From an uncultured Candidatus Peribacteria bacterium (lineage in GTDB: Bacteria > Patescibacteriota > Gracilibacteria > Peribacterales > Peribacteraceae), in NCBI GenBank assembly GCA_964597665.1, contig CAZQYX010000002.1, positions 12,723 through 76,722 of the forward strand: a stretch of 64,000 bases of DNA, in the 5' to 3' direction. How positions within the stretch are numbered: position 1 is the first letter of the stretch; every line of letters starts with the position of its first letter. Under the pieces are notes generated by a model. The model did not search any database, was not told the origin of the DNA, and worked only from the letters and a program-made list of their open reading frames with translations. Made by a program: the position numbers and the translations under genes. This document shows positions 2,050-55,420 of the stretch, piece by piece.

Positions 2050-2254
2050 GACGTCACTTTTCTACTTCATGGTGATGCCGCTTTTCAACAGGTAGTTTGG
2101 CGACAATTTTTCGTCTGTTTCTTTTTTGAACAACAGAATGATATCCTCATTTTTTGGCTTCTAAGCAACATTGTAGGATAGAACAATCTTTGAAGAAATC
2201 GTCATCTGTTTCGGTGTTGTTTGAATCGTGAACATCTTGCTATGCTCCGTCCGT

Positions 2255-3070
2255 ATGGCAAAAGACATCATTCATGTATTGCAGGCAGTCGGACTCGACA
2301 GCAAACAATCACAACTCTACGTCGCCGGTTTGCAGCTTGGCACGGCACCGGCGTCGGAGTACGCAAAATCGACGGGAATCAATCGCATTACGACGTACAA
2401 CTTGCTTGAGGAGATGGTGCACCGGAGCTACTTCACGGTGATTAAGAAGATGCGTGCCAAGTGGTACTCGCCGGTTGCTCCGGAGTTCGTGGCTCTGGAA
2501 GCGAGAAAAAATGCGGAAGCGCTGGAGCGTGTTCTCCCGGAACTTCGCTCACTGCAGGGCGCGAAGTATCGAAAGCCCCGCGTACGCTTCTTCGAGGGAT
2601 GGGAAGGCGTGAAGCATGTGTACGAAGACACGCTGACATCGAGCAAGGAACTCCTGAACTTCGCGAACTCGGCAGTCGTGCGAAAATTTTGGCCGCAGTA
2701 CGACGAGGAGTATGTCGATGAGCGCGTGAAGAGAGGCATTCATCTTCGAGGAATTGCACCCGATGACATCGCAGGCAAGCGCGTACACGGTGACGATCGT
2801 GAACATCTGCGAGAAATTCGTCTCGTCCCCGCGTCGGACTTCGATTTTACGAATGAGATCAATATCTACGATCATAAAGTTGCCATCTGTTCTTTCGATT
2901 CGGGACTGCGCGGTGATAAAGATATGTTCGGCGTCATCATCGAGAGCAAGGAGGTAGCCGAGACGCAGCGGCAGATTTTCGAGATGGCGTGGCGTTTTGC
3001 ATCTGCGACAACGCCAAAGCAGAGTACAGAGAAGAAGCCAAGTACATTCAAGCGACGGTTGATTGCGTAA
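2255..3070 (+). CDS. TrmB-family transcriptional regulator
   Basis: N-terminal winged HTH (LQAVGLDSKQSQLYVAGLQLGTAPASEYAKSTGINRITTYNLLEEM) with a TrmB-like C-terminal domain. ATG at 2255 is preferred over the GTG at 2228 used in the ORF track. Confidence 0.8.
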   Translation: MAKDIIHVLQAVGLDSKQSQLYVAGLQLGTAPASEYAKSTGINRITTYNLLEEMVHRSYFTVIKKMRAKWYSPVAPEFVALEARKNAEALERVLPELRSLQGAKYRKPRVRFFEGWEGVKHVYEDTLTSSKELLNFANSAVVRKFWPQYDEEYVDERVKRGIHLRGIAPDDIAGKRVHGDDREHLREIRLVPASDFDFTNEINIYDHKVAICSFDSGLRGDKDMFGVIIESKEVAETQRQIFEMAWRFASATTPKQSTEKKPSTFKRRLIA

Positions 3071-4753
3071 GTGTACGATAGTACACTACCATCATTTTTC
3101 ATGCTGCAATCAGCCACTCAATTCCGGCTTACACCGTGCCAGGAAAAAGCATTGGATATTCTCCAAAGGCAGGGGAATGTGTTTTTAACCGGTGCTGCCG
3201 GAACAGGGAAAAGCTTTCTTCTGGATCACTATTTGCGTGGGAAATCTTCCGAGGATTTTCCAATCGTCGCAAGTACGGGTGCCGCTGCTGTGATTGTGGG
3301 GGGTAGGACATTCCACAGTTTCTTCGGCCTCGGCATCATGGAAGGCGGCCTCGAAGCGACGATTCTGCGTGCAATGCGCAGCAAGAGACTGATGCGACGA
3401 TTGCAGCGCGCATGTTGCGTGATTATCGATGAGATTTCGATGCTTTCAGGTATGACGCTTAGTGCTGCAGAGAATATTGCAAGGGTCGCGAGGGGGAATC
3501 CCGAACCGTGGGGAGGTCTCCGGATCATCGCCGTCGGGGATTTCGCACAGCTTCCACCAATCGCACAAAGCGGTACCGAGAAAGATTGGGCCTTTCTCCA
3601 TCCTGTGTGGCAGGAGAGCAACTTCGAGCCGGCACTCCTGACGACCGTCATGCGAACGCAGGACACAAGTTTTCTCGAGATTCTGAATTTCGTGCGTGAA
3701 GGGATCGTCAATGACCGCGTGCACGCATTTCTGAATGAACGTACGTCAGCGTCGTCCGGCGAAGAAGAGGGAACCCGCTTGTATCCGCATCGGGCGCAGG
3801 CCGAGCAGTACAATTTGCTTCGGCTTCAGGCACTGCCGGAAGCAGTACATACCTTTCCAACGGAGTATGTCGGAGAAGAAAAATATATCGATGCGGCAAA
3901 GCGGGTGATCCCAATCCCCGATACGCTGCTCCTCAAAATCGGTGCACTTATTATGATGCGCAAGAACGATGCCACCGGGGAGTATCGCTACGTGAACGGA
4001 ACGCTCGGACATATTCGGAGTTTCAGCGAGGATGCTCTACATGTTCGCTTGCTTTCGGGTGAAGAGATCGATGTCGTTAGGGACAAATTCACCTGTCTGA
4101 ATGGTGACGGGAATGAAATCGCTGCCGCATGGAATTTCCCCGTCACGCTCGCGTGGGCAACGACGATCCACAAAGCCCAGGGAGCCTCGCTCGATCGAAT
4201 GATTGTCGATTTGCATCAGCTCTGGGAGCCGGGACAGGCGTACGTAGCACTCAGTCGCGTGCGCTCGGGAGCCGGGCTTAGGATAGAGCGCTGGAGTCCT
4301 GCTTCGATTCGCGCAGAGCGCATCGTGACTTCGTTCTATGATGGTCTTAGTGAGCGGGCGTTGAAATACAAGCCTCAGCCGTTTTTTGAGCCTCCAGTTC
4401 CTTCTCCCGAAGAAGAAAAGACGATGAAGAAGCATGCGCTCTCACAGAAAGAACGTCTTACGAGAACGAGACAGCTTCTTGAGGACGGCGCGGGCATTTC
4501 TCTCATCGCGGAGGCGTGTTCTGTGACGCAGAGCACGGTGCTCAATTACATTGAGAAGCTGATCGCACTTGGTAAGGCCCCGAGTCTTACGTACCTGATT
4601 GACGATCTCCCTGAGGTCGATGTCATCAGAGCACTGTATGAAGAACACGGTCTGCAGTTCATGAAACCTGTGTTCGAGGCACTCGAAGGACGCGTGCCGT
4701 ATGATCACCTGAAGCTCGTGCGTATCGTTCTTATTTCTCAATCGCCATCGTGA
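3071..4753 (+). CDS. Pif1/RecD-like SF1 DNA helicase with C-terminal HTH domain
   Basis: Walker A GAAGTGKSF, Walker B CVIIDEISM, and the block WATTIHKAQGASLD...AYVALSRVRS. The C-terminal ~90 aa is HTH-like (SLIAEACSVTQSTVLNYIEKL). The start may be ATG 3101 rather than GTG 3071. Confidence 0.85.
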   Translation: MYDSTLPSFFMLQSATQFRLTPCQEKALDILQRQGNVFLTGAAGTGKSFLLDHYLRGKSSEDFPIVASTGAAAVIVGGRTFHSFFGLGIMEGGLEATILRAMRSKRLMRRLQRACCVIIDEISMLSGMTLSAAENIARVARGNPEPWGGLRIIAVGDFAQLPPIAQSGTEKDWAFLHPVWQESNFEPALLTTVMRTQDTSFLEILNFVREGIVNDRVHAFLNERTSASSGEEEGTRLYPHRAQAEQYNLLRLQALPEAVHTFPTEYVGEEKYIDAAKRVIPIPDTLLLKIGALIMMRKNDATGEYRYVNGTLGHIRSFSEDALHVRLLSGEEIDVVRDKFTCLNGDGNEIAAAWNFPVTLAWATTIHKAQGASLDRMIVDLHQLWEPGQAYVALSRVRSGAGLRIERWSPASIRAERIVTSFYDGLSERALKYKPQPFFEPPVPSPEEEKTMKKHALSQKERLTRTRQLLEDGAGISLIAEACSVTQSTVLNYIEKLIALGKAPSLTYLIDDLPEVDVIRALYEEHGLQFMKPVFEALEGRVPYDHLKLVRIVLISQSPS

Positions 4754-7649: not shown

Positions 7650-8438
7650 TCAAATCTCTACGTTCTTTGCCTGTTTCCAGCAGAGCTCGAAGATCACGAG
7701 GCGGAAGAAGTGCGCAAGGTCCCTATTCTCGATAATCGTGCACGTCAGTTGCCGCTCGGTATACGACATCAGCGCCAAGGAGTCATTCCACGAGAAAATC
7801 CCGGACTGCCAGACATATTGCTGTGGGAGTGTTCGGACCTGGATGCGGTATTCGCGGGACTTCGCAGCTACTTTGTTTGCGAAATCGCAAGGAGGGAAGA
7901 GGAGGCGCGTATGGATTTCTCGCTGTGCACGGCGCTGGAAATACTCTTCCAGATATTTCACGCCTACGAGTTCCGAGAAGAGTGATACATAGGAGAAGAC
8001 GAGGATCTCGCCCCGAGCCGAGAGCGTTTCCTCCAGCATCTTTTTAAATCCGTCCGCACCTTCGTAGAGTTTCACGGTCGGTACGGACTGATCTGTCGAT
8101 TGCAGTGATGTCAGAAGTTGCATGATATGTTCCATGCCTCCGCGTACACGCGTGATTTCACGTTCTTTCTGTGCAAGTAACCGAAGCAAGCTCACCGGTT
8201 CCTCGGCGACGATCAATCGGCGCTTTCCTTTCCGCGACTCGAAGAGGAGACCTTTCTCCAGCATTTGTCCAACGGCACTATGGACCGTCACACGGTTCAT
8301 CCGCATCGTCCGGGCCAATTCTTGTACCGAGCAAGGCCCTAACTGCAGGCACCTCATATAGATGCCCGATTCACGCGCATTCGCTCCAAAGAAGCGGAGT
8401 TGTTCGTGGATGCGTCCGGTATCGGTGCGTGTGAGCAT
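7650..8438 (-). CDS. TrmB-family transcriptional regulator
   Basis: HTH (RESGIYMRCLQLGPCSVQELARTMRMNRVTVHSAVGQMLEKGLL) plus a TrmB C-terminal domain. Paralogous in layout to 2255-3070. Confidence 0.8.
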   Translation of the reverse strand: MLTRTDTGRIHEQLRFFGANARESGIYMRCLQLGPCSVQELARTMRMNRVTVHSAVGQMLEKGLLFESRKGKRRLIVAEEPVSLLRLLAQKEREITRVRGGMEHIMQLLTSLQSTDQSVPTVKLYEGADGFKKMLEETLSARGEILVFSYVSLFSELVGVKYLEEYFQRRAQREIHTRLLFPPCDFANKVAAKSREYRIQVRTLPQQYVWQSGIFSWNDSLALMSYTERQLTCTIIENRDLAHFFRLVIFELCWKQAKNVEI

Positions 8439-8442
8439 AAAT

Positions 8443-8461
8443 GTAGAGTAAAGCTCTACAC
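8443..8461. promoter_or_regulatory. perfect inverted repeat TGTAGAG-N5-CTCTACA abutting the TrmB start codon (candidate operator)
   Basis: Read directly: tgtagag taaag ctctaca, 4 nt upstream of the TrmB ATG (minus strand). It lies in the divergent intergenic region shared with the Cys-rich gene. Confidence 0.3.
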
Positions 8462-8613
8462 AATATTATAATCTTTGATTTTGTTTACTGCAAGAGCAAA
8501 ATGAGCACTCAAAACATTAGAAGATGCATGAAATGTTCTATCGTTTTTGACAAAAAACAGCGTGTGCCTCACACTGCTTCCAGCATCAAATCTCCTTCAC
8601 TGCCCCCAATTAT

Positions 8614-9615
8614 ATGGATTTCGTCCATGAATTTCAACGTCTTCTTTTAAGCAAGCCTCGGTACAACCTGATTCAAAACGGGGCCGAAAACTGTGATTTT
8701 GCGGAAGCCGTACGGTCCAAGAATTGCTACTACTGCTTTGGGATCTTCTACTCGGAAGATGTGTACTACGCACGGTACTCGAGAAAGTGCATCAGCTGCA
8801 GCGGGCTCACGTTCTGCTTAGGTTGCGAGTGGTGCACGGAGTGCGTCGACTGCAACAACTGCTACATGGCAGATTACTGCCAGGATTGTGCAAACTGCAG
8901 AGACTGCCAATTCTGCAAGGACTGCTTCGGCTGCAGCAATTGTTTCGGGTGTGTCGGCCTCTATCAGAAGCAGTACCGAATCTTCAATGAGCAGTGCACG
9001 AAAGAAGAATATGAGAAACGAATGCAGTCCATCGATCTCAAGAGTGGAGAGCAGCGCAGTGCGATTCAGGAGAAGGTGAAGGAGCTTCGAACGAAGGCTC
9101 CAAACCTCGGCTTGTATCAGTTCAGCTGCGAAGATTGCATTGGTAATCATTTGTCCGAATGCAAGAATTGCTACCGCTGTCACGATTCGTTCGCGCTCGA
9201 AGATTGTCTCTTCTGCATCGAAACCAACGGTCATAAAAACTGTTGCGATCTATCGCACTGTTTCGAGTGTGAATGGTCGTATCAGTGCGTCCATTGCCCG
9301 AATTGTCATACATGCGACTTCTGCTTCCATTGTTCGTTCTGCAGTGACTCTGAATTCTGCGCCTTCAGTAAAAACATCAAGAACTGTTTCGGGTGCGTGT
9401 TTTTGGAGAACAAGGAGTACCACATCCTGAATAAGCCCTACTCTGCCGAGGAGTACCCGAAGGAAGTCGAGCGCATCCGTGCCGAGCTTCAGAAATCCGG
9501 CAAGTACAACTTGCTTCCGTTCTTCGCGTCGCCCTACGAGGAGCACCGGCTCAAAAACGAAACCGACAGTGCGATCCAAGCTCTTCCCCCGACTCTTTCC
9601 CCCTCCTCTCTATGA
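8614..9615 (+). CDS. cysteine-ladder protein (about 42 Cys in 333 aa), two internally duplicated modules, function unknown
   Basis: Runs of C-x2-C (CLGCEWCTECVDCNNC...CQDCANCRDCQFCKDCFGCSNCFGCV). Each module ends in NCFGCV.L..K.Y.I.N....EEY.K. No signal peptide. Confidence 0.8.
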   Translation: MDFVHEFQRLLLSKPRYNLIQNGAENCDFAEAVRSKNCYYCFGIFYSEDVYYARYSRKCISCSGLTFCLGCEWCTECVDCNNCYMADYCQDCANCRDCQFCKDCFGCSNCFGCVGLYQKQYRIFNEQCTKEEYEKRMQSIDLKSGEQRSAIQEKVKELRTKAPNLGLYQFSCEDCIGNHLSECKNCYRCHDSFALEDCLFCIETNGHKNCCDLSHCFECEWSYQCVHCPNCHTCDFCFHCSFCSDSEFCAFSKNIKNCFGCVFLENKEYHILNKPYSAEEYPKEVERIRAELQKSGKYNLLPFFASPYEEHRLKNETDSAIQALPPTLSPSSL

Positions 9616-9902
9616 GTACATCCGCTACCGACAATGTCATCATGCTCCAATGCACCAATCCCGAATGCGGGAAGGATTTCATCGTCATCTCGCAGGAAGC
9701 CGCTTTCTATGAGCAGAAGAAATTGCCGCTGCCCGATCACTGTCCGGCGTGTCGCCATCGTCAGCGCATGGCTTTGCGTAGTGAGCGGCAGCTCTATAAG
9801 CGCACGTGTGACAAATGCAAGAAGCAGATGGTCTCGGTCTATCCGCAGGAAGCACCGTACCTCGTCTACTGCACCAATTGTTTCTGGGAGAATATTGAGT
9901 GA
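9612..9902 (+). CDS. zinc-ribbon protein (zf-trcl-like, probable zinc-ribbon domain)
   Basis: CTNPECGKDF...FYEQKKLPLPDHCPACRHRQR then CDKCKK...YCTNCF. Its ATG overlaps the upstream stop (ATGA at 9612-9615). Confidence 0.75.
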   Translation: MSTSATDNVIMLQCTNPECGKDFIVISQEAAFYEQKKLPLPDHCPACRHRQRMALRSERQLYKRTCDKCKKQMVSVYPQEAPYLVYCTNCFWENIE

Positions 9903-10564: not shown

Positions 10565-11716
10565 TTATTGTCCTTCATTGGGTATAACTGCCTCTGTAAC
10601 AAATTCGCGTGCGTCTTGTAAAAACCATAATCGACCCTCTCTTTTCAATGAACCCTTACAGCGGATTACATGATATGCCTTATGGGCATTAATTGCGCGG
10701 ACATAATCTTCACCGCTAAGTTCGATACGAATATGCTTGTTCTCATAGTCTTCATTTGAAGAAACAACTATGACTCGTCCGGTGCCACTGGGTGCCTCTC
10801 TTTCAAGTCTCATAATCCAGCCTTTTAACTCAAAGTCTTCTACGACATCAGACTCCCTCATTTTTTCGGCTGCTTGTTGCAAAATAGGTATTTGAGCTAC
10901 TGAAAACTCAAAATGCTTAGGAAGCTCTGTGGGTGGATCAAAACTAGGAGCCCAGTCCAAATCAATAACCACATTTGCAGATGGGTCATGAGAACGGATT
11001 CCGGCAATAGCCTCACAAAGGTTTGCGCTTACCCCACTCTCAACAATGGTATTAAAAGATTCTAAGTTTCCTTGGCTTAAAGCCTGAGCAGATGCTGTAT
11101 GTACTGCACTCAAGGCTTTAGAGAATTGTTTTAAAACTCTCCGTCCAAATAAATCTTCGGCATCATTAACTATCGACCTTTGGTCTGATTGTGGCAGCGG
11201 GGAATGGGCTGTTACTACATAGCTTCCGACCTCAGTTTGTCCTAGGCGTACACCTGCAATGTATTTCATGGCTTGTTCGTATTTTCTTCCGGGATAGACT
11301 GCTTTTTTAGTTATTTCCCCACAAGCTGCTGAGAGAATCATATCATATGTTTGCTTAATTAATTCAACACCATTGGCTAGAGGAATTTGTCCGTCTGTCG
11401 TACTTGGTCCTACCACACGTACTCTAACTACGTCGGTAGACACGGAGCTAATTTTTGCCAAAATTTCTTCAGGATTAACTTTTTCAACAACCGACAATGT
11501 ATGCAAAGCGTCACTGATTCGCTCAACAAAGTCATCAAGCATTCTTTTTTTCGGGGTCAAAATTTCATATTCCTCATTCTGAATTCTTTTAATCCAGACC
11601 TTGCCCAAGCCAAAGCTGCGTGTCTCCGTCCAATTGTTGAGTTCTAGATAGACCTCAAGTAAAGCTAAATCTAAAGCTTGGATTCTGCCTATAATTGATG
11701 AATTAAAACGACTCAT
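10565..11716 (-). CDS. hypothetical protein, 383 aa, no recognisable domain (third gene of the tRNA-Glu-linked cassette)
   Basis: Clean long ORF in an AT-rich segment. Its start overlaps the upstream stop by ATGA (11713-11716). Confidence 0.75.
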   Translation of the reverse strand: MSRFNSSIIGRIQALDLALLEVYLELNNWTETRSFGLGKVWIKRIQNEEYEILTPKKRMLDDFVERISDALHTLSVVEKVNPEEILAKISSVSTDVVRVRVVGPSTTDGQIPLANGVELIKQTYDMILSAACGEITKKAVYPGRKYEQAMKYIAGVRLGQTEVGSYVVTAHSPLPQSDQRSIVNDAEDLFGRRVLKQFSKALSAVHTASAQALSQGNLESFNTIVESGVSANLCEAIAGIRSHDPSANVVIDLDWAPSFDPPTELPKHFEFSVAQIPILQQAAEKMRESDVVEDFELKGWIMRLEREAPSGTGRVIVVSSNEDYENKHIRIELSGEDYVRAINAHKAYHVIRCKGSLKREGRLWFLQDAREFVTEAVIPNEGQ

Positions 11717-12303
11717 AAAGTTCCAGCGTTAGCTTGCCTCATAAGCTCGATTAAAGTTGCAGGAGTGAATACATTATCGCTTGGCAAAAGCACTGTAACA
11801 TTTGAAGTATTAGCTGTGTCAGGTTCGCCCTTCAGGCTTCTCCAATAGGCATGGTTTTTAAGAATTAGTTCAGCGGGAGTTTGATTTAACCATGTATTCA
11901 AATCTCTGGGCACAACTACAACGATTAATAATCGTGGGATGACGACCTCCTTTTTAAGGTCATTGTAATTTTTTAGAGTAAGCGGGTAATGCATGCCATC
12001 CGCATGCATCAGGTCATCTCGATATGTGCATTTTAGCTGCACATCAATTTGTGGTGATTTCTTTGTTCCGTGTGCTCCGTGCGAATAAATGGATGTATCG
12101 ACACTATCAATGTCCAAAGCTCCGGTTTTTGCAGATTCAAAAAGAGCAGCTGTTGCAACCGCAGAGACAAATGTTCTGCTGAATAATTCCATTTGGAGTT
12201 CTTCGATCATCAGAAAATAAACATATCTAAGTATGAAACTTTTGTCATTAGCTGTTAGTAATTGCTGCATAGGATTAGGGTGTACAATTGTACACCCAAT
12301 CAT
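11713..12303 (-). CDS. DUF4365-like restriction-endonuclease-fold protein
   Basis: Pattern E..FSRTFV.AVA ... LDIDSVDTSIY ... PQIDVQLKCT matches the DUF4365 / PD-(D/E)xK layout (acidic residues followed by Q-L-K). Called from memory of the family; not searched. Confidence 0.6.
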   Translation of the reverse strand: MIGCTIVHPNPMQQLLTANDKSFILRYVYFLMIEELQMELFSRTFVSAVATAALFESAKTGALDIDSVDTSIYSHGAHGTKKSPQIDVQLKCTYRDDLMHADGMHYPLTLKNYNDLKKEVVIPRLLIVVVVPRDLNTWLNQTPAELILKNHAYWRSLKGEPDTANTSNVTVLLPSDNVFTPATLIELMRQANAGTL

Positions 12304-12312
12304 ATATATGAT

Positions 12313-12828
12313 TCAAGTATTTAAGTAGAATTTAAAATTTCTATCCGCTTTGATAAGCCTCTCTGCGCTGTGTGCTGCAATTAATAGACCCCTAGCCTTA
12401 GAAACATAGTCCTTCATATTAAATCCCCAAAAGTCGGTATCTCTTCCTCCCGCATCTACAAACTGCTTGCTTGAGAACACAGCATGTTCATGAACTTCTT
12501 TAGATGGAAGGCAATAAAAATGTGCAGGGGGCTTATCAAGATTATTCTTTGGAATTCCAACAAATATGTACCATTTGTCAGCGCCAACCCATCGCAAAAC
12601 TTGTGGTTTCTTAAGAATGACTTTTTGGTTTCCTTCCTCATAGGACTTTACTTGAATCCAAAGCACACGGTCAGAAGCTGTATCTTCAATACAAAGATCG
12701 CTATCGCGGAAATTTCCTCCTAAATAAACAACATTCCAGCCATTTCTTGCTAGTTCTGCTGCCGCGTAGAATTCTGCCGATTTTCCGGAGCTCGACATGT
12801 ACAGGAGAGTTAGTTGGCCGAAGGCCAT
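12313..12828 (-). CDS. small PD-(D/E)xK-like nuclease-fold protein
   Basis: AEFYAAAELARNGWNVVYL..NFRDSDLCIED....VLWIQVKS follows the E...G-W...D-x-D...(I/V)QVK pattern of small endonuclease-fold proteins. The start could be the internal ATG at 12798. Confidence 0.5.
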   Translation of the reverse strand: MAFGQLTLLYMSSSGKSAEFYAAAELARNGWNVVYLGGNFRDSDLCIEDTASDRVLWIQVKSYEEGNQKVILKKPQVLRWVGADKWYIFVGIPKNNLDKPPAHFYCLPSKEVHEHAVFSSKQFVDAGGRDTDFWGFNMKDYVSKARGLLIAAHSAERLIKADRNFKFYLNT

Positions 12829-12856: not shown

Positions 12857-12931
12857 TGGCAGCCCCAGGGAGAATTGAACTCCCGTTAACGGATTGAAAA
12901 CCCGCTGTCCTAACCATTAGACGATGGGGCC
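12857..12931 (-). tRNA. tRNA-Glu (anticodon UUC), CCA encoded
   Basis: Folded by hand: GGCCCCA/TGGGGCT acceptor, D-loop with GG, anticodon stem GCGGG/TCCGT with loop TTTTCAA, T-arm GGGAG-TTCAATT-CTCCC, then GCCA. 75 nt. Confidence 0.92.
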
Positions 12932-35017: not shown

Positions 35018-35311
35018 TTACGCAGCCATACCTGTGTTCTTCTCTGCCTTGAAGCAGTTGAGACACAGAACCGGACGACCGCCTTCGGACTCCGGACGTG
35101 GCTTGAACGGAACCTCGCAGGGCGCGGCGCACTTGGCGCACGTTGCGGGGAACATTTGCCTCGTGGCATTGCGATCCTGCTTGCGCTTGTCGCGGCAGTC
35201 CTTGCACCTCTGGGGTGCTGCGAGACCGCGCTCGGCGTAGAAGGCTTGCTCACCCTCGGTGAACGTAAAGGCTGCGCCGCAATCGCGGCAGGTGATCTGT
35301 TGATCAGCCAT
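35018..35311 (-). CDS. zinc-ribbon protein (zf-trcl-like), paralogue of 9612-9902
   Basis: MADQQITCRDCGAAFTFTEGEQAFYAERGLAAPQRCKDCRDKRK ... CAKCAAPCEV...LCLNCF. Start at ATG 35311. Confidence 0.7.
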   Translation of the reverse strand: MADQQITCRDCGAAFTFTEGEQAFYAERGLAAPQRCKDCRDKRKQDRNATRQMFPATCAKCAAPCEVPFKPRPESEGGRPVLCLNCFKAEKNTGMAA

Positions 35312-35460
35312 AAAAAAGAAAGAAAAAAAGAAGTAAAGTTGCACACGTTCCTTCTTTTCTAGCTTCTTCGGGATTGTATTCCGCGGGTCAGACTATTCGA
35401 GAGAGGTCGTTTTGCACTCTCACTGTATTCCTTTCGAGCGCTTTCGTCAATAGAACTTGA

Positions 35461-51927: not shown

Positions 51928-51991
51928 TTTCCCTGTTCCAAAGAAAGTATTGCAGAATGATTGTTTTAGGGAGTACACTTCCCGAAATACC

Positions 51992-53044
51992 ATGACTCCT
52001 GCCAAGAAAGCAGCGGCCGTTTCAAATAATCCTAAAGATTATTGCATCGCAACGATCGGCAGTCACACGGCACTGCAAATTCTGAAGGGTGCGCGGGACG
52101 AAGGCATTCCGAATCTTGTGGTTTGCAAGAGAGGAACAGAACGCGTGTACAAAAGCTTCGGTGTTGCGGACGATATTCTCATTGTCGACGATTGGAGCGA
52201 GTGGGATAAGAAAGTCGAGCCGGAACTGATCAAGCGCAACGCCATCATCATCCCGCACGGATCGTTCATTGCGTACATGGGGCCTGAGAAAGTGCAGACG
52301 ATGAAGAGCATGTACTACGGAACGAAAGAAATTCTCGAGTGGGAGAGCAACAGAACGATGGAACGAAAGTGGCTTCTGGATGCCGATATTCTCATGCCTC
52401 GCGTCTTCGAGAAACCGGAGGACATCGACTGTCCTGTCATCGTCAAGTTCCATGGAGCGGGAGGAGGGTTCGGGTACTTCGTCGTCAGGTCGGCCGAGCA
52501 GTTCTACGAGGTGAAGAATCGCAAGTACCCCGACGAGACCGATTTCAACATTCAGGAGTACATCATCGGCGTGCCGCTCTACATTCACTACTTCTACTCG
52601 CCGATCACAAAGGAACTGGAGATCATGAGCTTCGACAAGCGGTATGAAAGCAATGCGGACTCCATCGGTCGCATTAAAGCGGAGGACCAGCTCGCCGCGA
52701 AGATCCACACGAGCTACACGATCGTCGGCAATATTCCCATCGTCGTTCGAGAATCCATGCTTCCCGAATTCTTCGCAATGGGTGAGCGTGTCGTCGCCGC
52801 AAGCAGGAAGCTCTGCGGCAAGGGTTTGTTTGGCTCATTCTGCCTCGAGACAATCGTGACACGAAAACTGCAGACGTTCGTGTTCGAGATCAGCGCAAGA
52901 ATCGTTGCCGGTACGAATCCGTTCATCGAAGGTTCTCCTTACACTGCACTCAAATATGACGTGCCGATGAGCACCGGCCGTCGCATTGCGAGGGATATTA
53001 AGCAGGCGATAGAGGCTGGAAGGCTTGCGGAGATTTTGGGCTAA
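51992..53044 (+). CDS. purP: PurP-like ATP-grasp enzyme (archaeal-type FAICAR synthetase family), paralogue 1
   Basis: IATIGSHTALQILKGARDEGI...IIPHGSFIAYMG (DUF1246-like N-domain) plus an ATP-grasp C-domain (VIVKFHGAGGGFGYF). Start at ATG 51992. Confidence 0.78.
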   Translation: MTPAKKAAAVSNNPKDYCIATIGSHTALQILKGARDEGIPNLVVCKRGTERVYKSFGVADDILIVDDWSEWDKKVEPELIKRNAIIIPHGSFIAYMGPEKVQTMKSMYYGTKEILEWESNRTMERKWLLDADILMPRVFEKPEDIDCPVIVKFHGAGGGFGYFVVRSAEQFYEVKNRKYPDETDFNIQEYIIGVPLYIHYFYSPITKELEIMSFDKRYESNADSIGRIKAEDQLAAKIHTSYTIVGNIPIVVRESMLPEFFAMGERVVAASRKLCGKGLFGSFCLETIVTRKLQTFVFEISARIVAGTNPFIEGSPYTALKYDVPMSTGRRIARDIKQAIEAGRLAEILG

Positions 53045-53118: not shown

Positions 53119-54285
53119 ATGGACATTTCCTCACTTCTCTCCGACTACGATCTTAAAAATCTCACCATCGGTGTGCTCGGCGGACACAGCGCGCTCGATG
53201 TGTGTCACGGAGCGAAGCAGCATGGATTCCGTACGGTGTGCGTAGCTCGGAAGGGGAGAGAGCAGACGTACGAAAAATATTACAAAACGAGAAATTCCAA
53301 AAACCAAAAACCAAATTCCAATAACGATTCAATTGGATGCATTGACGACGTGATCGTGGTTGATCAGTTTCAAGATGTTCTTGATGAAAAGATAGAAAAA
53401 AAGCTGCAAAGTATGAACACAATATTTGTTCATAATCGGTACTTCTGGGTGTACTTCGATGACTTCTCGAAGGTCGAAAATGATTTCAATGTTCCGATCT
53501 TCGGGTCACGCACACTGCTGAAATTGGAAGAGCGCGATCAACCGTTTAACCAATATGATTTACTCAAGAAAGCAGGCATTCGGATTCCGAAAATTTTCAA
53601 ATCTCCAAAAGAGATCGACCGACCGGTTCTCGTGAAGGCCGCGGAAGCGAAGAGGGGATACGAGCGTGCGTTCTTCATCTCGACGTCTCCGAAAAGTTAT
53701 GAAGCGACTGGGTCTGCACTCGAGGCGGACGGAAAAGTTTCGAAGAACTGGCGAGAGGCGACGATCGAAGAATTCGTCGTCGGTGCTCCCGTAAATTTTA
53801 ATTTTTTCTACTCGCCTCTCTCAGGCGAGCTTGAGCTGCTTGGTACTGACACACGTCGTCAGACCAACCTCGATGGTTTCCTGCGAATGACGGCCGATCA
53901 GCAAACTCTTGCGCTGAAGCACGTTCCCCTCAAGATGATCGAGACAGGACATATCGCATGCACGGTGAAAGAATCGATCCTCGAGAAAGCATTCGACTTG
54001 GGTGAGAAATTTGTGAAAGCGACGCAGTCACTTCCGGCGAATCTTGATCCGAGCAAGAAAGGCATCATCGGACCGTTTGCACTGCAGGGTGCAGTCGTTG
54101 CGGAAGATGGTAAAGAAGACATCGTGATCTTCGATGTCTCGCTCCGTATTCCCGGCTCACCCGGCATCGCCGCGACTCCGTACTCAGGGTATTTGTACGG
54201 GAAGAGTATGAGTGTCGGGGAAAGAGTAGGACTTGAGATAAAGAATGCAGTACAACAGAAGAGACTCCTGGAGATTGTGACGTAG
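53119..54285 (+). CDS. purP: PurP-like ATP-grasp enzyme, paralogue 2 (carries a repeat-derived insertion)
   Basis: IGVLGGHSALDVCHGAKQHGFRTVCVARKGREQTYE... and an ATP-grasp C-domain. Collinear with paralogue 1 except for an insertion near residue 58. Confidence 0.78.
   Translation: MDISSLLSDYDLKNLTIGVLGGHSALDVCHGAKQHGFRTVCVARKGREQTYEKYYKTRNSKNQKPNSNNDSIGCIDDVIVVDQFQDVLDEKIEKKLQSMNTIFVHNRYFWVYFDDFSKVENDFNVPIFGSRTLLKLEERDQPFNQYDLLKKAGIRIPKIFKSPKEIDRPVLVKAAEAKRGYERAFFISTSPKSYEATGSALEADGKVSKNWREATIEEFVVGAPVNFNFFYSPLSGELELLGTDTRRQTNLDGFLRMTADQQTLALKHVPLKMIETGHIACTVKESILEKAFDLGEKFVKATQSLPANLDPSKKGIIGPFALQGAVVAEDGKEDIVIFDVSLRIPGSPGIAATPYSGYLYGKSMSVGERVGLEIKNAVQQKRLLEIVT
53291..53321. repeat. half-copy of the AATTCCAAA-type repeat inside the purP-2 reading frame (copy A4)
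   Basis: gaaattccaaaaaccaaaaaccaaattccaa is translated in frame as NSKNQKPNSN. Confidence 0.7.
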
Positions 54286-54616: not shown

Positions 54617-54766
54617 AGGTTCAGTACTATACTTCTAAAGAATTCATCCGTCAAATATAGAGTTTTGTTCTACATTGGTGGAGCCTTAGCGAATGATTGG
54701 GGACTTTTCAGGTCTTCACTTGTTGAAATTCTTGCTGAAGCCAGCGACAGGGAGTAAAGAATTGTC

Positions 54767-55420
54767 ATGATCAGAAATCCTGAAAGATACTCATTTCTTG
54801 CTCACGCACAGGGATATTTGAAAGCAGCCCGGCTCTACTGTCAGCAATTATTGAATCCAGTCCACAAGTGGAGTGACGGGAATTCACGGGTGCCGCCGGA
54901 ATGGCCTAGCCCGATTGAATATCATGCTGTGGAAATACTCCCAGCGGCTCTTTTCAATATTCACCACGCAATAGAATTGTTTCTGAAATCATTTTTGATC
55001 GATATAGGGAAGCCCAATAATTACTCCCATGATCTCAAAGTTCTCTTTGCCCCCATTGAGCAAGTCGTCATCAAGACAGGATGGTTGCCGATAACAATTA
55101 ATCAATATCAGGAAATTCTTGATCAAGAAGAAATTGATCGTGTCCAACAAGTAGTCATTCCTGAACTCAGAGACTTAATAAATTTTGTCTCCGATAGAGC
55201 CGTTCTCCAGCAAAAGCTTGATGACCCAGCTAATGAGCTATTTAGGTATCCTAAAACACGCAAAGGACAGGAGTATGATATTAACTCCTTAGGGAATGTG
55301 GATGTGGCTGATTTATTAGGCAAAATAGACAAGCTCTATGAGCATCTCAACGACATCGGCTATTTATTTGCTGTTGATATTAGGCACAAGCCACGTGGTC
55401 ATTCTAAGTTCGATCTCTAA
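54767..55420 (+). CDS. hypothetical protein, possibly HEPN-like helical fold
   Basis: IHHAIELFLKSFL....NYSHDLKVLF resembles HEPN helix 1-2 wording. I did not find a clean Rx4-6H motif. Confidence 0.45.
   Translation: MIRNPERYSFLAHAQGYLKAARLYCQQLLNPVHKWSDGNSRVPPEWPSPIEYHAVEILPAALFNIHHAIELFLKSFLIDIGKPNNYSHDLKVLFAPIEQVVIKTGWLPITINQYQEILDQEEIDRVQQVVIPELRDLINFVSDRAVLQQKLDDPANELFRYPKTRKGQEYDINSLGNVDVADLLGKIDKLYEHLNDIGYLFAVDIRHKPRGHSKFDL

Follow-up and report, generated by a model that had tools for sequence, protein, structure and literature searches.

A cysteine-ladder protein and its zinc-finger partner in Candidatus Peribacteria: the split form of a large unnamed family with operon links to a soluble coupling-protein-like ATPase

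On contig CAZQYX010000002.1 of an uncultured Candidatus Peribacteria bacterium (assembly GCA_964597665.1) one gene encodes a protein of 333 amino acids, 42 of them cysteines, and its stop codon overlaps the start of a second gene for a 96-amino acid zinc protein. What is this pair, and what might a bacterium do with it? We analysed the surrounding 64 kb of DNA (the window, positions 12,723 to 76,722 of the contig; all coordinates below are window positions) and followed the two proteins, referred to here as the ladder protein and ZnR, through metagenome-derived genomes. An original prediction made from the letters of the window had proposed a cytoplasmic, metal-rich two-protein unit belonging to no characterised family. 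What that first reading missed is that the pair is, judged from its sequence relatives, the split form of a very large, unnamed and lineage-specific family, one that has expanded into tandem arrays and is linked to a soluble ATPase.

The comparisons establish a duplicated, solenoid-like repeat, its dependence on a zinc module, a conserved putative repressor with its operator-like palindrome, and an operon link between the family and a soluble ATPase that resembles type IV coupling proteins (T4CP). We propose that the pair is a split zinc-headed solenoid under TrmB-like control, acting as a client or adaptor of this ATPase, an explanation that as a whole we give slightly less than an even chance.

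The ladder protein and its zinc-finger partner

The features of the two genes are as follows.

8614..9615, + strand: ladder protein gene (333 aa, 42 Cys)
8614..9063, + strand: module 1 (aa 1-150), comprising N-terminal helix, solenoid, NCFGCVGL..K.Y.I.N tail and helix
9064..9513, + strand: module 2 (aa 151-300), duplicate of module 1 by BLASTP and hhalign
8725..8952, + strand: period-3 core lattice of module 1 (aa 38-113, every third residue), from the family alignment
9160..9396, + strand: period-3 core lattice of module 2 (aa 183-261), from the family alignment
8923..8952, + strand: most conserved four-Cys coil (C104, C107, C110, C113), candidate metal site
9612..9615, + strand: ATGA start/stop overlap (translational coupling), second open reading frame (ORF) in a different frame
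9612..9902, + strand: zinc protein gene (96 aa), zf_Tbcl family (Pfam PF13451)
9651..9752, + strand: treble-clef finger 1 (C14, C19, C44, C47), from Cys conservation and the AlphaFold2 (AF2) model
9807..9881, + strand: treble-clef finger 2 (C66, C69, C87, C90; CxxC-x17-CxxC), Cys invariant

Cysteine makes up 12.6% of the ladder protein, against an average of ~1.3% for the remaining long ORFs in the window. Of the 41 gaps between successive cysteines, 30 are exactly 3 residues, in agreement with the C-x2-C runs initially noted. No signal peptide or membrane segment was detected (maximum 19-residue Kyte-Doolittle mean 1.05), which supports the cytoplasmic location originally proposed. The two halves of the protein are homologous (BLASTP E=3e-25, 36% identity over 133 ungapped residues; profile-profile comparison with hhalign, E=3.5e-42), bearing out the two-module architecture that had been suggested from a shared tail; the duplication in fact spans the whole ~140-aa module. 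We found 958 database homologues of the ladder protein and 58 of the zinc protein, numbers far beyond chance, and therefore take both genes to be real and under selection rather than a compositional artefact. The ladder protein is acidic (median pI 5.2 across the family), and it is the third richest in cysteine among 250 family members, for which the median is 9.6%.

In an alignment of 249 family domains, the columns of the period-3 lattice are 57% Cys in module 1 and 40% Cys in module 2, and small or aliphatic residues account for most of the remainder (93% Cys/Ser/Ala/Leu/Ile/Val/Met and 86% Cys/Ser/Ala/aliphatic, respectively). Autocorrelation of the profile peaks at all multiples of 3, with maxima at lags 12 and 24. 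Asp or Asn often precedes a lattice position, Asp/Asn and aromatics predominate beside the lattice, and aromatics never occupy the lattice itself. The AF2 model (pLDDT 68.5, pTM 0.49; moderate confidence) shows a 12-residue rhythm in two beta-rich blocks, with helices after each (in module 1, helix 3-13, beta-rich 20-105 and helices 130-161).

A Foldseek comparison of this model with the PDB gave no significant match; its weak neighbours were nearly all beta-helices, the best-fitting small solenoid being the Tenebrio molitor protein TmAFP (TM 0.59 on target, probability 0.77, E=1.3). A single-sequence search of the PDB found nothing, and a search with the family profile placed TmAFP (1ezg) at the top (E=0.037), in register with the 12-residue repeat of that protein. 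The beta-helix for which the original prediction had suggested looking agrees with the rhythm of the model and the nature of its neighbours, none of which is a significant match. Scans of the ladder protein against Pfam, NCBIfam and PADLOC likewise returned nothing above noise, and it continues to fall outside all characterised families. A mimivirus TNFR-Cys protein from the viral library (Foldseek E=1.7e-4) was set aside as Cys-repeat bias because its TM scores are merely 0.15 and 0.30. Our reading of the model and alignment is that the ladder protein would form a thin solenoid with 12-residue coils and a core packed mainly by cysteine.

Are these cysteines metal ligands? Orthologues of 45% identity or more conserve 26 of the 42 at ≥85%, and in relatives below 45% identity just C74, C107, C110, C113 and C261 reach ≥84%, with C38, C77 and C104 slightly lower. 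Conservation of the cysteines, which the original prediction had expected of homologues, holds in these distant relatives for a small set and fails for the majority. The positions that are not conserved are filled by Ser, Leu, Ile, Val or Ala, and since a core position in relatives may carry Cys, Ser, Ala, Leu, Ile or Val, most ladder cysteines appear to be structural core packing and not obligate ligands. A very high cysteine count need not, then, imply metal binding. C228, C231, C237 and C240 are Cys in only 18-30% of close orthologues and are thus gains in the lineage of the window. In contrast to these, the C104-C113 coil is 79-96% Cys at each of its four positions even in relatives below 45% identity; this coil, perhaps with C74/C77 and the CFGC knuckle C258/C261, may provide metal sites.

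ZnR passes the Pfam threshold for PF13451 (25.9 bits, cut-off 24, E=9.3e-6, residues 13-52). All eight of its cysteines are conserved in 27 homologues, seven being invariant and C47 nearly so. Its AF2 model (pLDDT 82.8) contains two hairpin-plus-helix units with the last two cysteines at the start of each helix; in finger 1 a beta-hairpin (10-25) precedes a helix from residue 45, with C44 and C47 at its N-terminus. As modelled, this is the treble-clef pattern, and the protein very probably binds two Zn. The description of ZnR as a four-CxxC zinc ribbon was accordingly right as to eight cysteines and three CxxC pairs but not as to the first pair, C14/C19, which is C-x4-C. Similarly, of the metal-rich unit envisaged, the zinc protein very probably conforms, whereas most cysteines of the ladder protein are replaceable in relatives. 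Finger 2 gives a weak profile match to the second half of the LIM domains of CRP proteins (E=0.006, 32 residues), and Foldseek found nothing significant for the ZnR model. The protein is basic (family median pI 8.8) and Arg-rich. A free-standing ZnR paralogue with a CxxC-x17-CxxC motif is encoded at 35018-35344 (- strand; 34% identical to the 96-aa protein, E=1.3e-9), adjoining a nitroreductase gene and with no ladder gene nearby.

The wider family, its regulator and the ATPase

To follow the pair across genomes we used 28 species-level genomes carrying a ladder orthologue of at least 48% identity. The zinc gene lies immediately 3' of the ladder gene in 27 of 27 loci where the contig continues, and likewise in L001 and L003, where gene callers had overlooked it. 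Close orthologues keep the same ATGA overlap or nearly abut; in distant ones the spacing is mostly below ~80 nt (~220 nt in one), or the genes are fused. Ladder-ZnR fusions make up 14 of the 120 closest clusters, so that adjacency and natural fusion both bear out the two-protein unit. We considered whether the 420-430-aa fusions might reflect UGA read-through in Gracilibacteria using genetic code 25, but the two ORFs do not share a frame and the fusion is present in 14 independent clusters, which led us to discard the idea.

The predominant form of the family is a single chain of ~555 aa with a zinc module at either end: the best 150 family representatives comprise 94 ZnR-ladder-ZnR, 10 ZnR-ladder, 8 ladder-ZnR and 33 ladder-only proteins. 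The ladder query retrieved 2,342 representatives (50% identity clusters, E<=1e-3) and the ZnR-ladder-ZnR query at least 5,670 clusters at 90% identity. Source names are "hypothetical protein", "uncharacterized protein" or "zinc-ribbon domain containing protein", with one spurious "Epidermal growth factor receptor". With one genome per species in GTDB, 390 stretches encode a ladder relative, and the best 80 of these are almost all labelled as Peribacteria, Peregrinibacteria, Gracilibacteria or the Patescibacteria group. The few other labels (Kerfeldbacteria, Saccharibacteria, Bdellovibrionales, Gammaproteobacteria) all belong to metagenome bins and depend on binning; all ladder relatives are metagenome-derived. 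There was no relative among the 2.9 million viral contigs of IMG/VR, leading us to reject a phage origin, and no second ladder gene in the 64-kb window. A literature search found no paper describing the family; the Cys-rich proteins of Peribacteria treated in PMC4736985 are large and exported, and do not belong to it.

Upstream of the ladder gene lies a divergent regulator gene, and the spacer between them contains several conserved elements.

7650..8438, - strand: TrmB/MarR-like winged-helix regulator (262 aa), divergent from the ladder gene
8442..8460, no strand: operator-like perfect palindrome TGTAGA-N7-TCTACA, 4 nt upstream of the regulator ATG
8464..8472, no strand: TATAAT-like box next to the palindrome, probable -10 of the regulator promoter
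8547..8552, + strand: TTGACA, probable -35 of the ladder/ZnR promoter, from orthologous spacers

The regulator scores below the curated Pfam cut-offs for MarR_2 (E=3.6e-5, 24.3 bits, cut-off 27), TrmB (E=6.5e-4, 19.9 bits, cut-off 25.6) and the C-terminal Regulator_TrmB domain (E=7.8e-3); the precomputed annotation of its orthologue in L001 is an unmarked PF01978 match. In 20 of the 25 loci that could be assessed, an orthologue (48-83% identity) is likewise divergent from the ladder gene. The palindrome is the sole exact match in the 64 kb (0.07 chance matches expected at <=1 mismatch) and has kept its position in nearly all orthologous spacers. These spacers are otherwise unalignable apart from the TATAAT-like box beside it, a TATTATA/TATAAT string being present after the palindrome in most, and a TTGAC(A/G) nearer the ladder gene, at a similar distance 5' of the ladder start in most. 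A simple promoter scan did not call the TTGACA at 8547-8552, its -10 being poor. The scan did return a sigma-70-like site at 8609-8637 (- strand; TTGAAA-17-TATAAT, 11/12) that overlaps the ladder start codon and points to the regulator; since it is not conserved in orthologues, it is probably a chance occurrence.

As the position and conservation of the palindrome fit an autoregulatory operator, the safest inference is that the TrmB-like protein would regulate its own gene at 8442-8460; it is likely to control the ladder operon from this spacer as well. The link to a divergent TrmB-family gene that had been put forward as a possibility is thus supported, by its retention in these loci together with the palindrome. 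Paralogous TrmB-like genes precede ZnR-ladder-ZnR genes, again divergently, in many other loci, where the palindromes are the same or variants (e.g. TTGTAA...TCTACA, TTGTCG...CGACAA).

Several further observations concern this regulator. At 54656-54674 the palindrome recurs with one mismatch (TATAGA-N7-TCTACA), flanked by a small ORF on the minus strand (start near 54618) and a gene for a HEPN-domain protein (54767-55420); the TrmB-like regulator, or its paralogue, might act at this site too. A second TrmB-like gene (2228-3070, + strand; 26% identical to the first, tblastn E=7e-23) is directly followed by a gene for a PIF1-like helicase with a C-terminal HTH_40 domain (3071-4753, + strand). 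In some orthologous loci (L001 5054-5956, L016, L018, L027) an extra ORF separates the TrmB-like and ladder genes, giving a spacer of 490-630 nt or more, and the palindrome stays beside the regulator.

ZnR-ladder-ZnR genes also occur in tandem arrays, up to nine or more genes within 17 kb (L067, L070, L079, L082), and seven lie in a row in L009/L010, where a ladder protein is 75% identical to that of the window. The array paralogues are diverged (28-40% identity). Several arrays end in a gene for a T4CP-like ATPase of 730-760 aa that lacks a membrane segment (maximum 19-residue hydropathy 1.12). This protein matches T4SS-DNA_transf (45.8 bits, cut-off 20.1), passes TrwB_AAD_bind and TraG-D_C as well, has the Walker A motif GKSGSGKS, and carries an extra domain of ~300 aa and no N-terminal membrane anchor.

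As a reverse test, 80 metagenomic loci were fetched through the ATPase; the tblastn counts that follow depend on flank length and thresholds. A ladder/ZnR gene ends within 600 nt upstream of the ATPase in 42 of the 68 loci with at least 1 kb of upstream sequence, and further loci have one within a few kb upstream. Equally close downstream there was none (0/63 loci), and all 108 upstream ladder matches are on the ATPase strand. Clustering of the ORFs, limited by flank length, found the ATPase in 78 loci, ZnR-ladder-ZnR in 59 and the TrmB-like protein in 26. No other neighbour, type IV secretion system (T4SS) genes included, recurs within 6 kb either side of the ATPase. The canonical cluster is a divergent TrmB-like gene, one or more ZnR-ladder-ZnR genes and then the soluble T4CP-like ATPase. 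Two loci join orthologues of the window protein to the ATPase: in L037 the gene for a 48%-identical ladder orthologue in fusion with its ZnR begins 8 nt beyond that of the ATPase, and in L009/L010 the ladder orthologue is convergent beside it.

A 2025 survey counted 5,713 T4CP homologues in Patescibacteria, merely 148 of them near virB4, and suggested that they were possibly exapted, leaving their role open (PMC12102498). As a conserved operon partner of a soluble T4CP-like ATPase, the ladder family offers a concrete way to test what these orphan ATPases do.

The investment in this unnamed protein is large. Peregrinibacteria and Gracilibacteria genomes are ~1-1.4 Mb in size, yet they contain several such loci each, with arrays of up to nine genes of ~1.7 kb.

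Other genes were seen inside or beside these clusters. In L061 (915-3910) two ATP-grasp (D-Ala-D-Ala-ligase-like) genes and a lysine-2,3-aminomutase-like radical SAM gene lie between two ladder genes, upstream of the T4CP-like gene, which hints at protein or peptide modification, at this one locus. Toxin-antitoxin-type nucleotidyltransferase genes (AbiEii-like, Pol-beta/MNT-like) occur inside ZnR-ladder-ZnR arrays at L090 7114-7668 and L007 7033-7635. Directly downstream of the ladder pair in the window is a PADLOC candidate defence pair (10565-12303, - strand) of PDC-M02B (383 aa, E=4.8e-106) and PDC-M02A (196 aa, DUF4365, E=4.3e-51), and beyond it a 171-aa ORF (12313-12828, - strand) and tRNA-Glu (12857-12931, - strand). 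This segment looks like a small island inserted at the tRNA, outside the ladder unit. Farther away are tandem genes with DUF1246/DUF1297 domains (51950-53044 and 53119-54285, both + strand), which we take to mark PurP-type purine-synthesis enzymes, usually archaeal.

Explanations for the proposed zinc-headed solenoid

In the explanation that we prefer, the window genes would be a split version of a chain composed of a double treble-clef zinc module, a duplicated thin beta-solenoid and a second double treble-clef zinc module. The 333-aa protein would be a solenoid of two homologous ~145-aa modules, with coils of roughly 12 residues that turn every third side chain inward; a small conserved set of cysteines (C104/C107/C110/C113, C74/C77, C258/C261) could hold one or two structural metal ions. 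The 96-aa protein, made in step through the ATGA overlap, would supply the zinc module with its two Zn and bind the solenoid, and the TrmB-like repressor would act at the palindrome at 8442-8460. The complex would then be a rigid acidic rod (pI ~5.2) with basic, Arg-rich zinc heads (pI ~8.8) that bind a partner, either nucleic acid or protein, and the family would serve as client or adaptor of the soluble, hexameric T4CP-like ATPase encoded at the end of most arrays. An extension of this scheme, which we regard as speculative and rather unlikely, is that the ZnR-ladder-ZnR family, split pair included, constitutes the missing clientele of the thousands of orphan T4CP ATPases in Patescibacteria; if true, this clientele would be a lineage-specific repertoire of cargo or adaptors by which ultra-small episymbionts act on DNA or on their hosts. 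Less likely still, the most Cys-rich members would carry a row of metal ions through the solenoid, seated in their stacked four-Cys coils.

Several points weigh against the zinc-headed solenoid. The model behind it is of moderate confidence, its topology and metal sites being predicted, and binding of nucleic acid by ZnR is suggested by charge and by a generic source name. There is no T4CP-like gene in the 64-kb window, and because L037 and L009/L010 are the two orthologous loci close to the ATPase, that link comes mainly from paralogues. There is also a ladder-only subfamily with no ZnR nearby (e.g. L005, L040-L043). Finally, cysteine columns are more conserved than the others, both among close relatives (0.75 vs 0.56-0.61) and among distant ones (0.49 vs 0.29). 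Given this and the high rank of the window protein in cysteine content, the ladder cysteines may have some thiol-specific role.

The best placed of the rival explanations, although we consider it unlikely, is that ZnR-ladder-ZnR proteins and the split pair are secreted effectors, cargo that the ATPase exports into the host or prey cell of episymbionts with the conserved zinc modules as recognition domain. Arrays of diverged paralogues directly upstream of a T4CP-like gene and always on its strand, the conserved terminal domain common to all members, the lack of a Sec signal and the orphan T4CP homologues counted by the survey cited above are what such cargo would lead one to expect. The ATPase, however, has no membrane anchor, unlike canonical coupling proteins, and no other T4SS gene recurs in the flanks examined. 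Moreover, the orthogroup of the window pair resembles a housekeeping one, being conserved across lineages at one copy per locus seen and having its own repressor, and export itself is a proposal only.

Somewhat less probable still is a metal-thiolate protein, in which coils with three or four inward cysteines would bind Zn, Fe or an Fe-S cluster, the ladder protein would serve to store or buffer metal, to sense redox state or oxidants or to conduct electrons as a stack, and ZnR would be an accessory. The cysteine content with its C-x2-C runs, the greater conservation of the cysteine columns and the family-wide conservation of the C104-C113 coil are consistent with this, as is a weak match of the family profile to the Zn-binding CXXC domain of KMT2A in the PDB search (E=0.07). 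AF2 confidence falls exactly after both CFGC knuckles (112-118, 263-265), which would fit sites that require metal. A ladder-only paralogue of 39% identity without ZnR nearby (L005 3090-6954) moreover has an iron/oxidative-stress neighbourhood, following genes for Fur, ferritin, a thioredoxin-reductase-like protein and desulfoferrodoxin with a two-gene MazE-like module between; this neighbourhood was, however, seen once only. Replacement of most cysteines by Ser, Leu, Ile, Val or Ala leaves few coils with four cysteines, and several cysteines of the window protein are recent gains at positions where close orthologues have Ser, Asn, Leu or Thr. No Fer4, rubredoxin or metallothionein model of Pfam or NCBIfam matches.

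A component of a conflict system, whether a defence or anti-defence protein such as a DNA mimic or an immunity-type array in variable islands, we consider improbable: the acidity of the solenoid, the adjoining PDC-M02 pair and tRNA gene, the AbiEii-type and Pol-beta-type nucleotidyltransferase, MazE-like and GIY-YIG genes interspersed in related loci and weak matches of the ATPase to the PADLOC mad8 and HerA models favour it, but neither ladder, ZnR nor a ZnR-ladder-ZnR protein has a PADLOC match, the 2.9 million viral contigs hold no homologue, the neighbours vary between loci, and the orthogroup is not patchy but retains synteny with its regulator over deep divergence.

Comparison with known systems

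The closest structural parallel to the ladder protein is TmAFP, a beta-helix of TCTxSxxCxxAx repeats, which shares its 12-residue coil, an inward small residue at every third position and cysteines stacked along the axis. Neither the profile nor the Foldseek comparison gives significant homology between the two, whose likeness probably arose by convergence. In TmAFP, secreted by an insect, each coil contains a single disulfide and a Thr-x-Thr face binds ice, whereas the ladder protein is bacterial and cytoplasmic, lacks a signal peptide, has up to four cysteines per coil and surrounds them with Asp/Asn and aromatics instead of a Thr face; it is also duplicated, with helical inserts, and tied to zinc modules. 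Cytoplasmic beta-solenoids such as the pentapeptide-repeat proteins MfpA and Qnr, which are acidic DNA mimics, the left-handed hexapeptide beta-helices and bactofilin are likewise rigid rods built from repeats. The ladder protein differs from Hexapep and Pentapeptide in giving no Pfam match and in directing residues i and i+3, not i and i+4, inward, its x-C-x-x-C-x repeat and 12-residue coil contrasting with a 5-residue repeat or with [LIV]-G-x2-[STAV]-x and an 18-residue coil. From ferredoxins it is set apart by CxxCxxCxxC spacing without Cys-Pro and by the lack of any Fer4 match at E<=1 in Pfam or NCBIfam, and from metallothioneins by its 333-aa length, its richness in Tyr and Phe, a predicted beta-rich fold with helices and the lack of a model match.

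Of the "probable treble clef" domains zf_Tbcl (PF13451) and zf_Tbcl_2 (PF23477), the 96-aa protein exceeds the gathering score of the first; it differs from Pfam zf_Tbcl in combining two fingers and in being dedicated to a solenoid as neighbour or fusion. Finger 2 shares the CxxC-x17-CxxC spacing of the LIM domains of CRP proteins, LIM fingers being protein-binding treble clefs, but the match covers only half of a LIM domain, and nothing significant came out of the structural search.

The regulator resembles the archaeal TrmB sugar-sensing regulators in its N-terminal winged helix, a weak match to the C-terminal effector domain and a palindromic predicted operator at its own promoter. It departs from them in scoring under the curated cut-offs and in being paired with a Cys-rich solenoid gene, not with sugar metabolism. 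The array ATPase has the nucleotide-binding domain models and Walker A motif of the coupling proteins VirD4, TraG, TraD and TrwB, which recognise specific clients, often encoded nearby, but it has no membrane anchor and no relaxase or channel genes close to it. Because the ladder protein falls outside characterised families and the cluster matches no described system, we rate both as new at the level of family and gene cluster, assembled from kinds of component that are each known: a zinc finger, a beta-solenoid repeat, a winged-helix repressor and an FtsK/VirD4-class ATPase.

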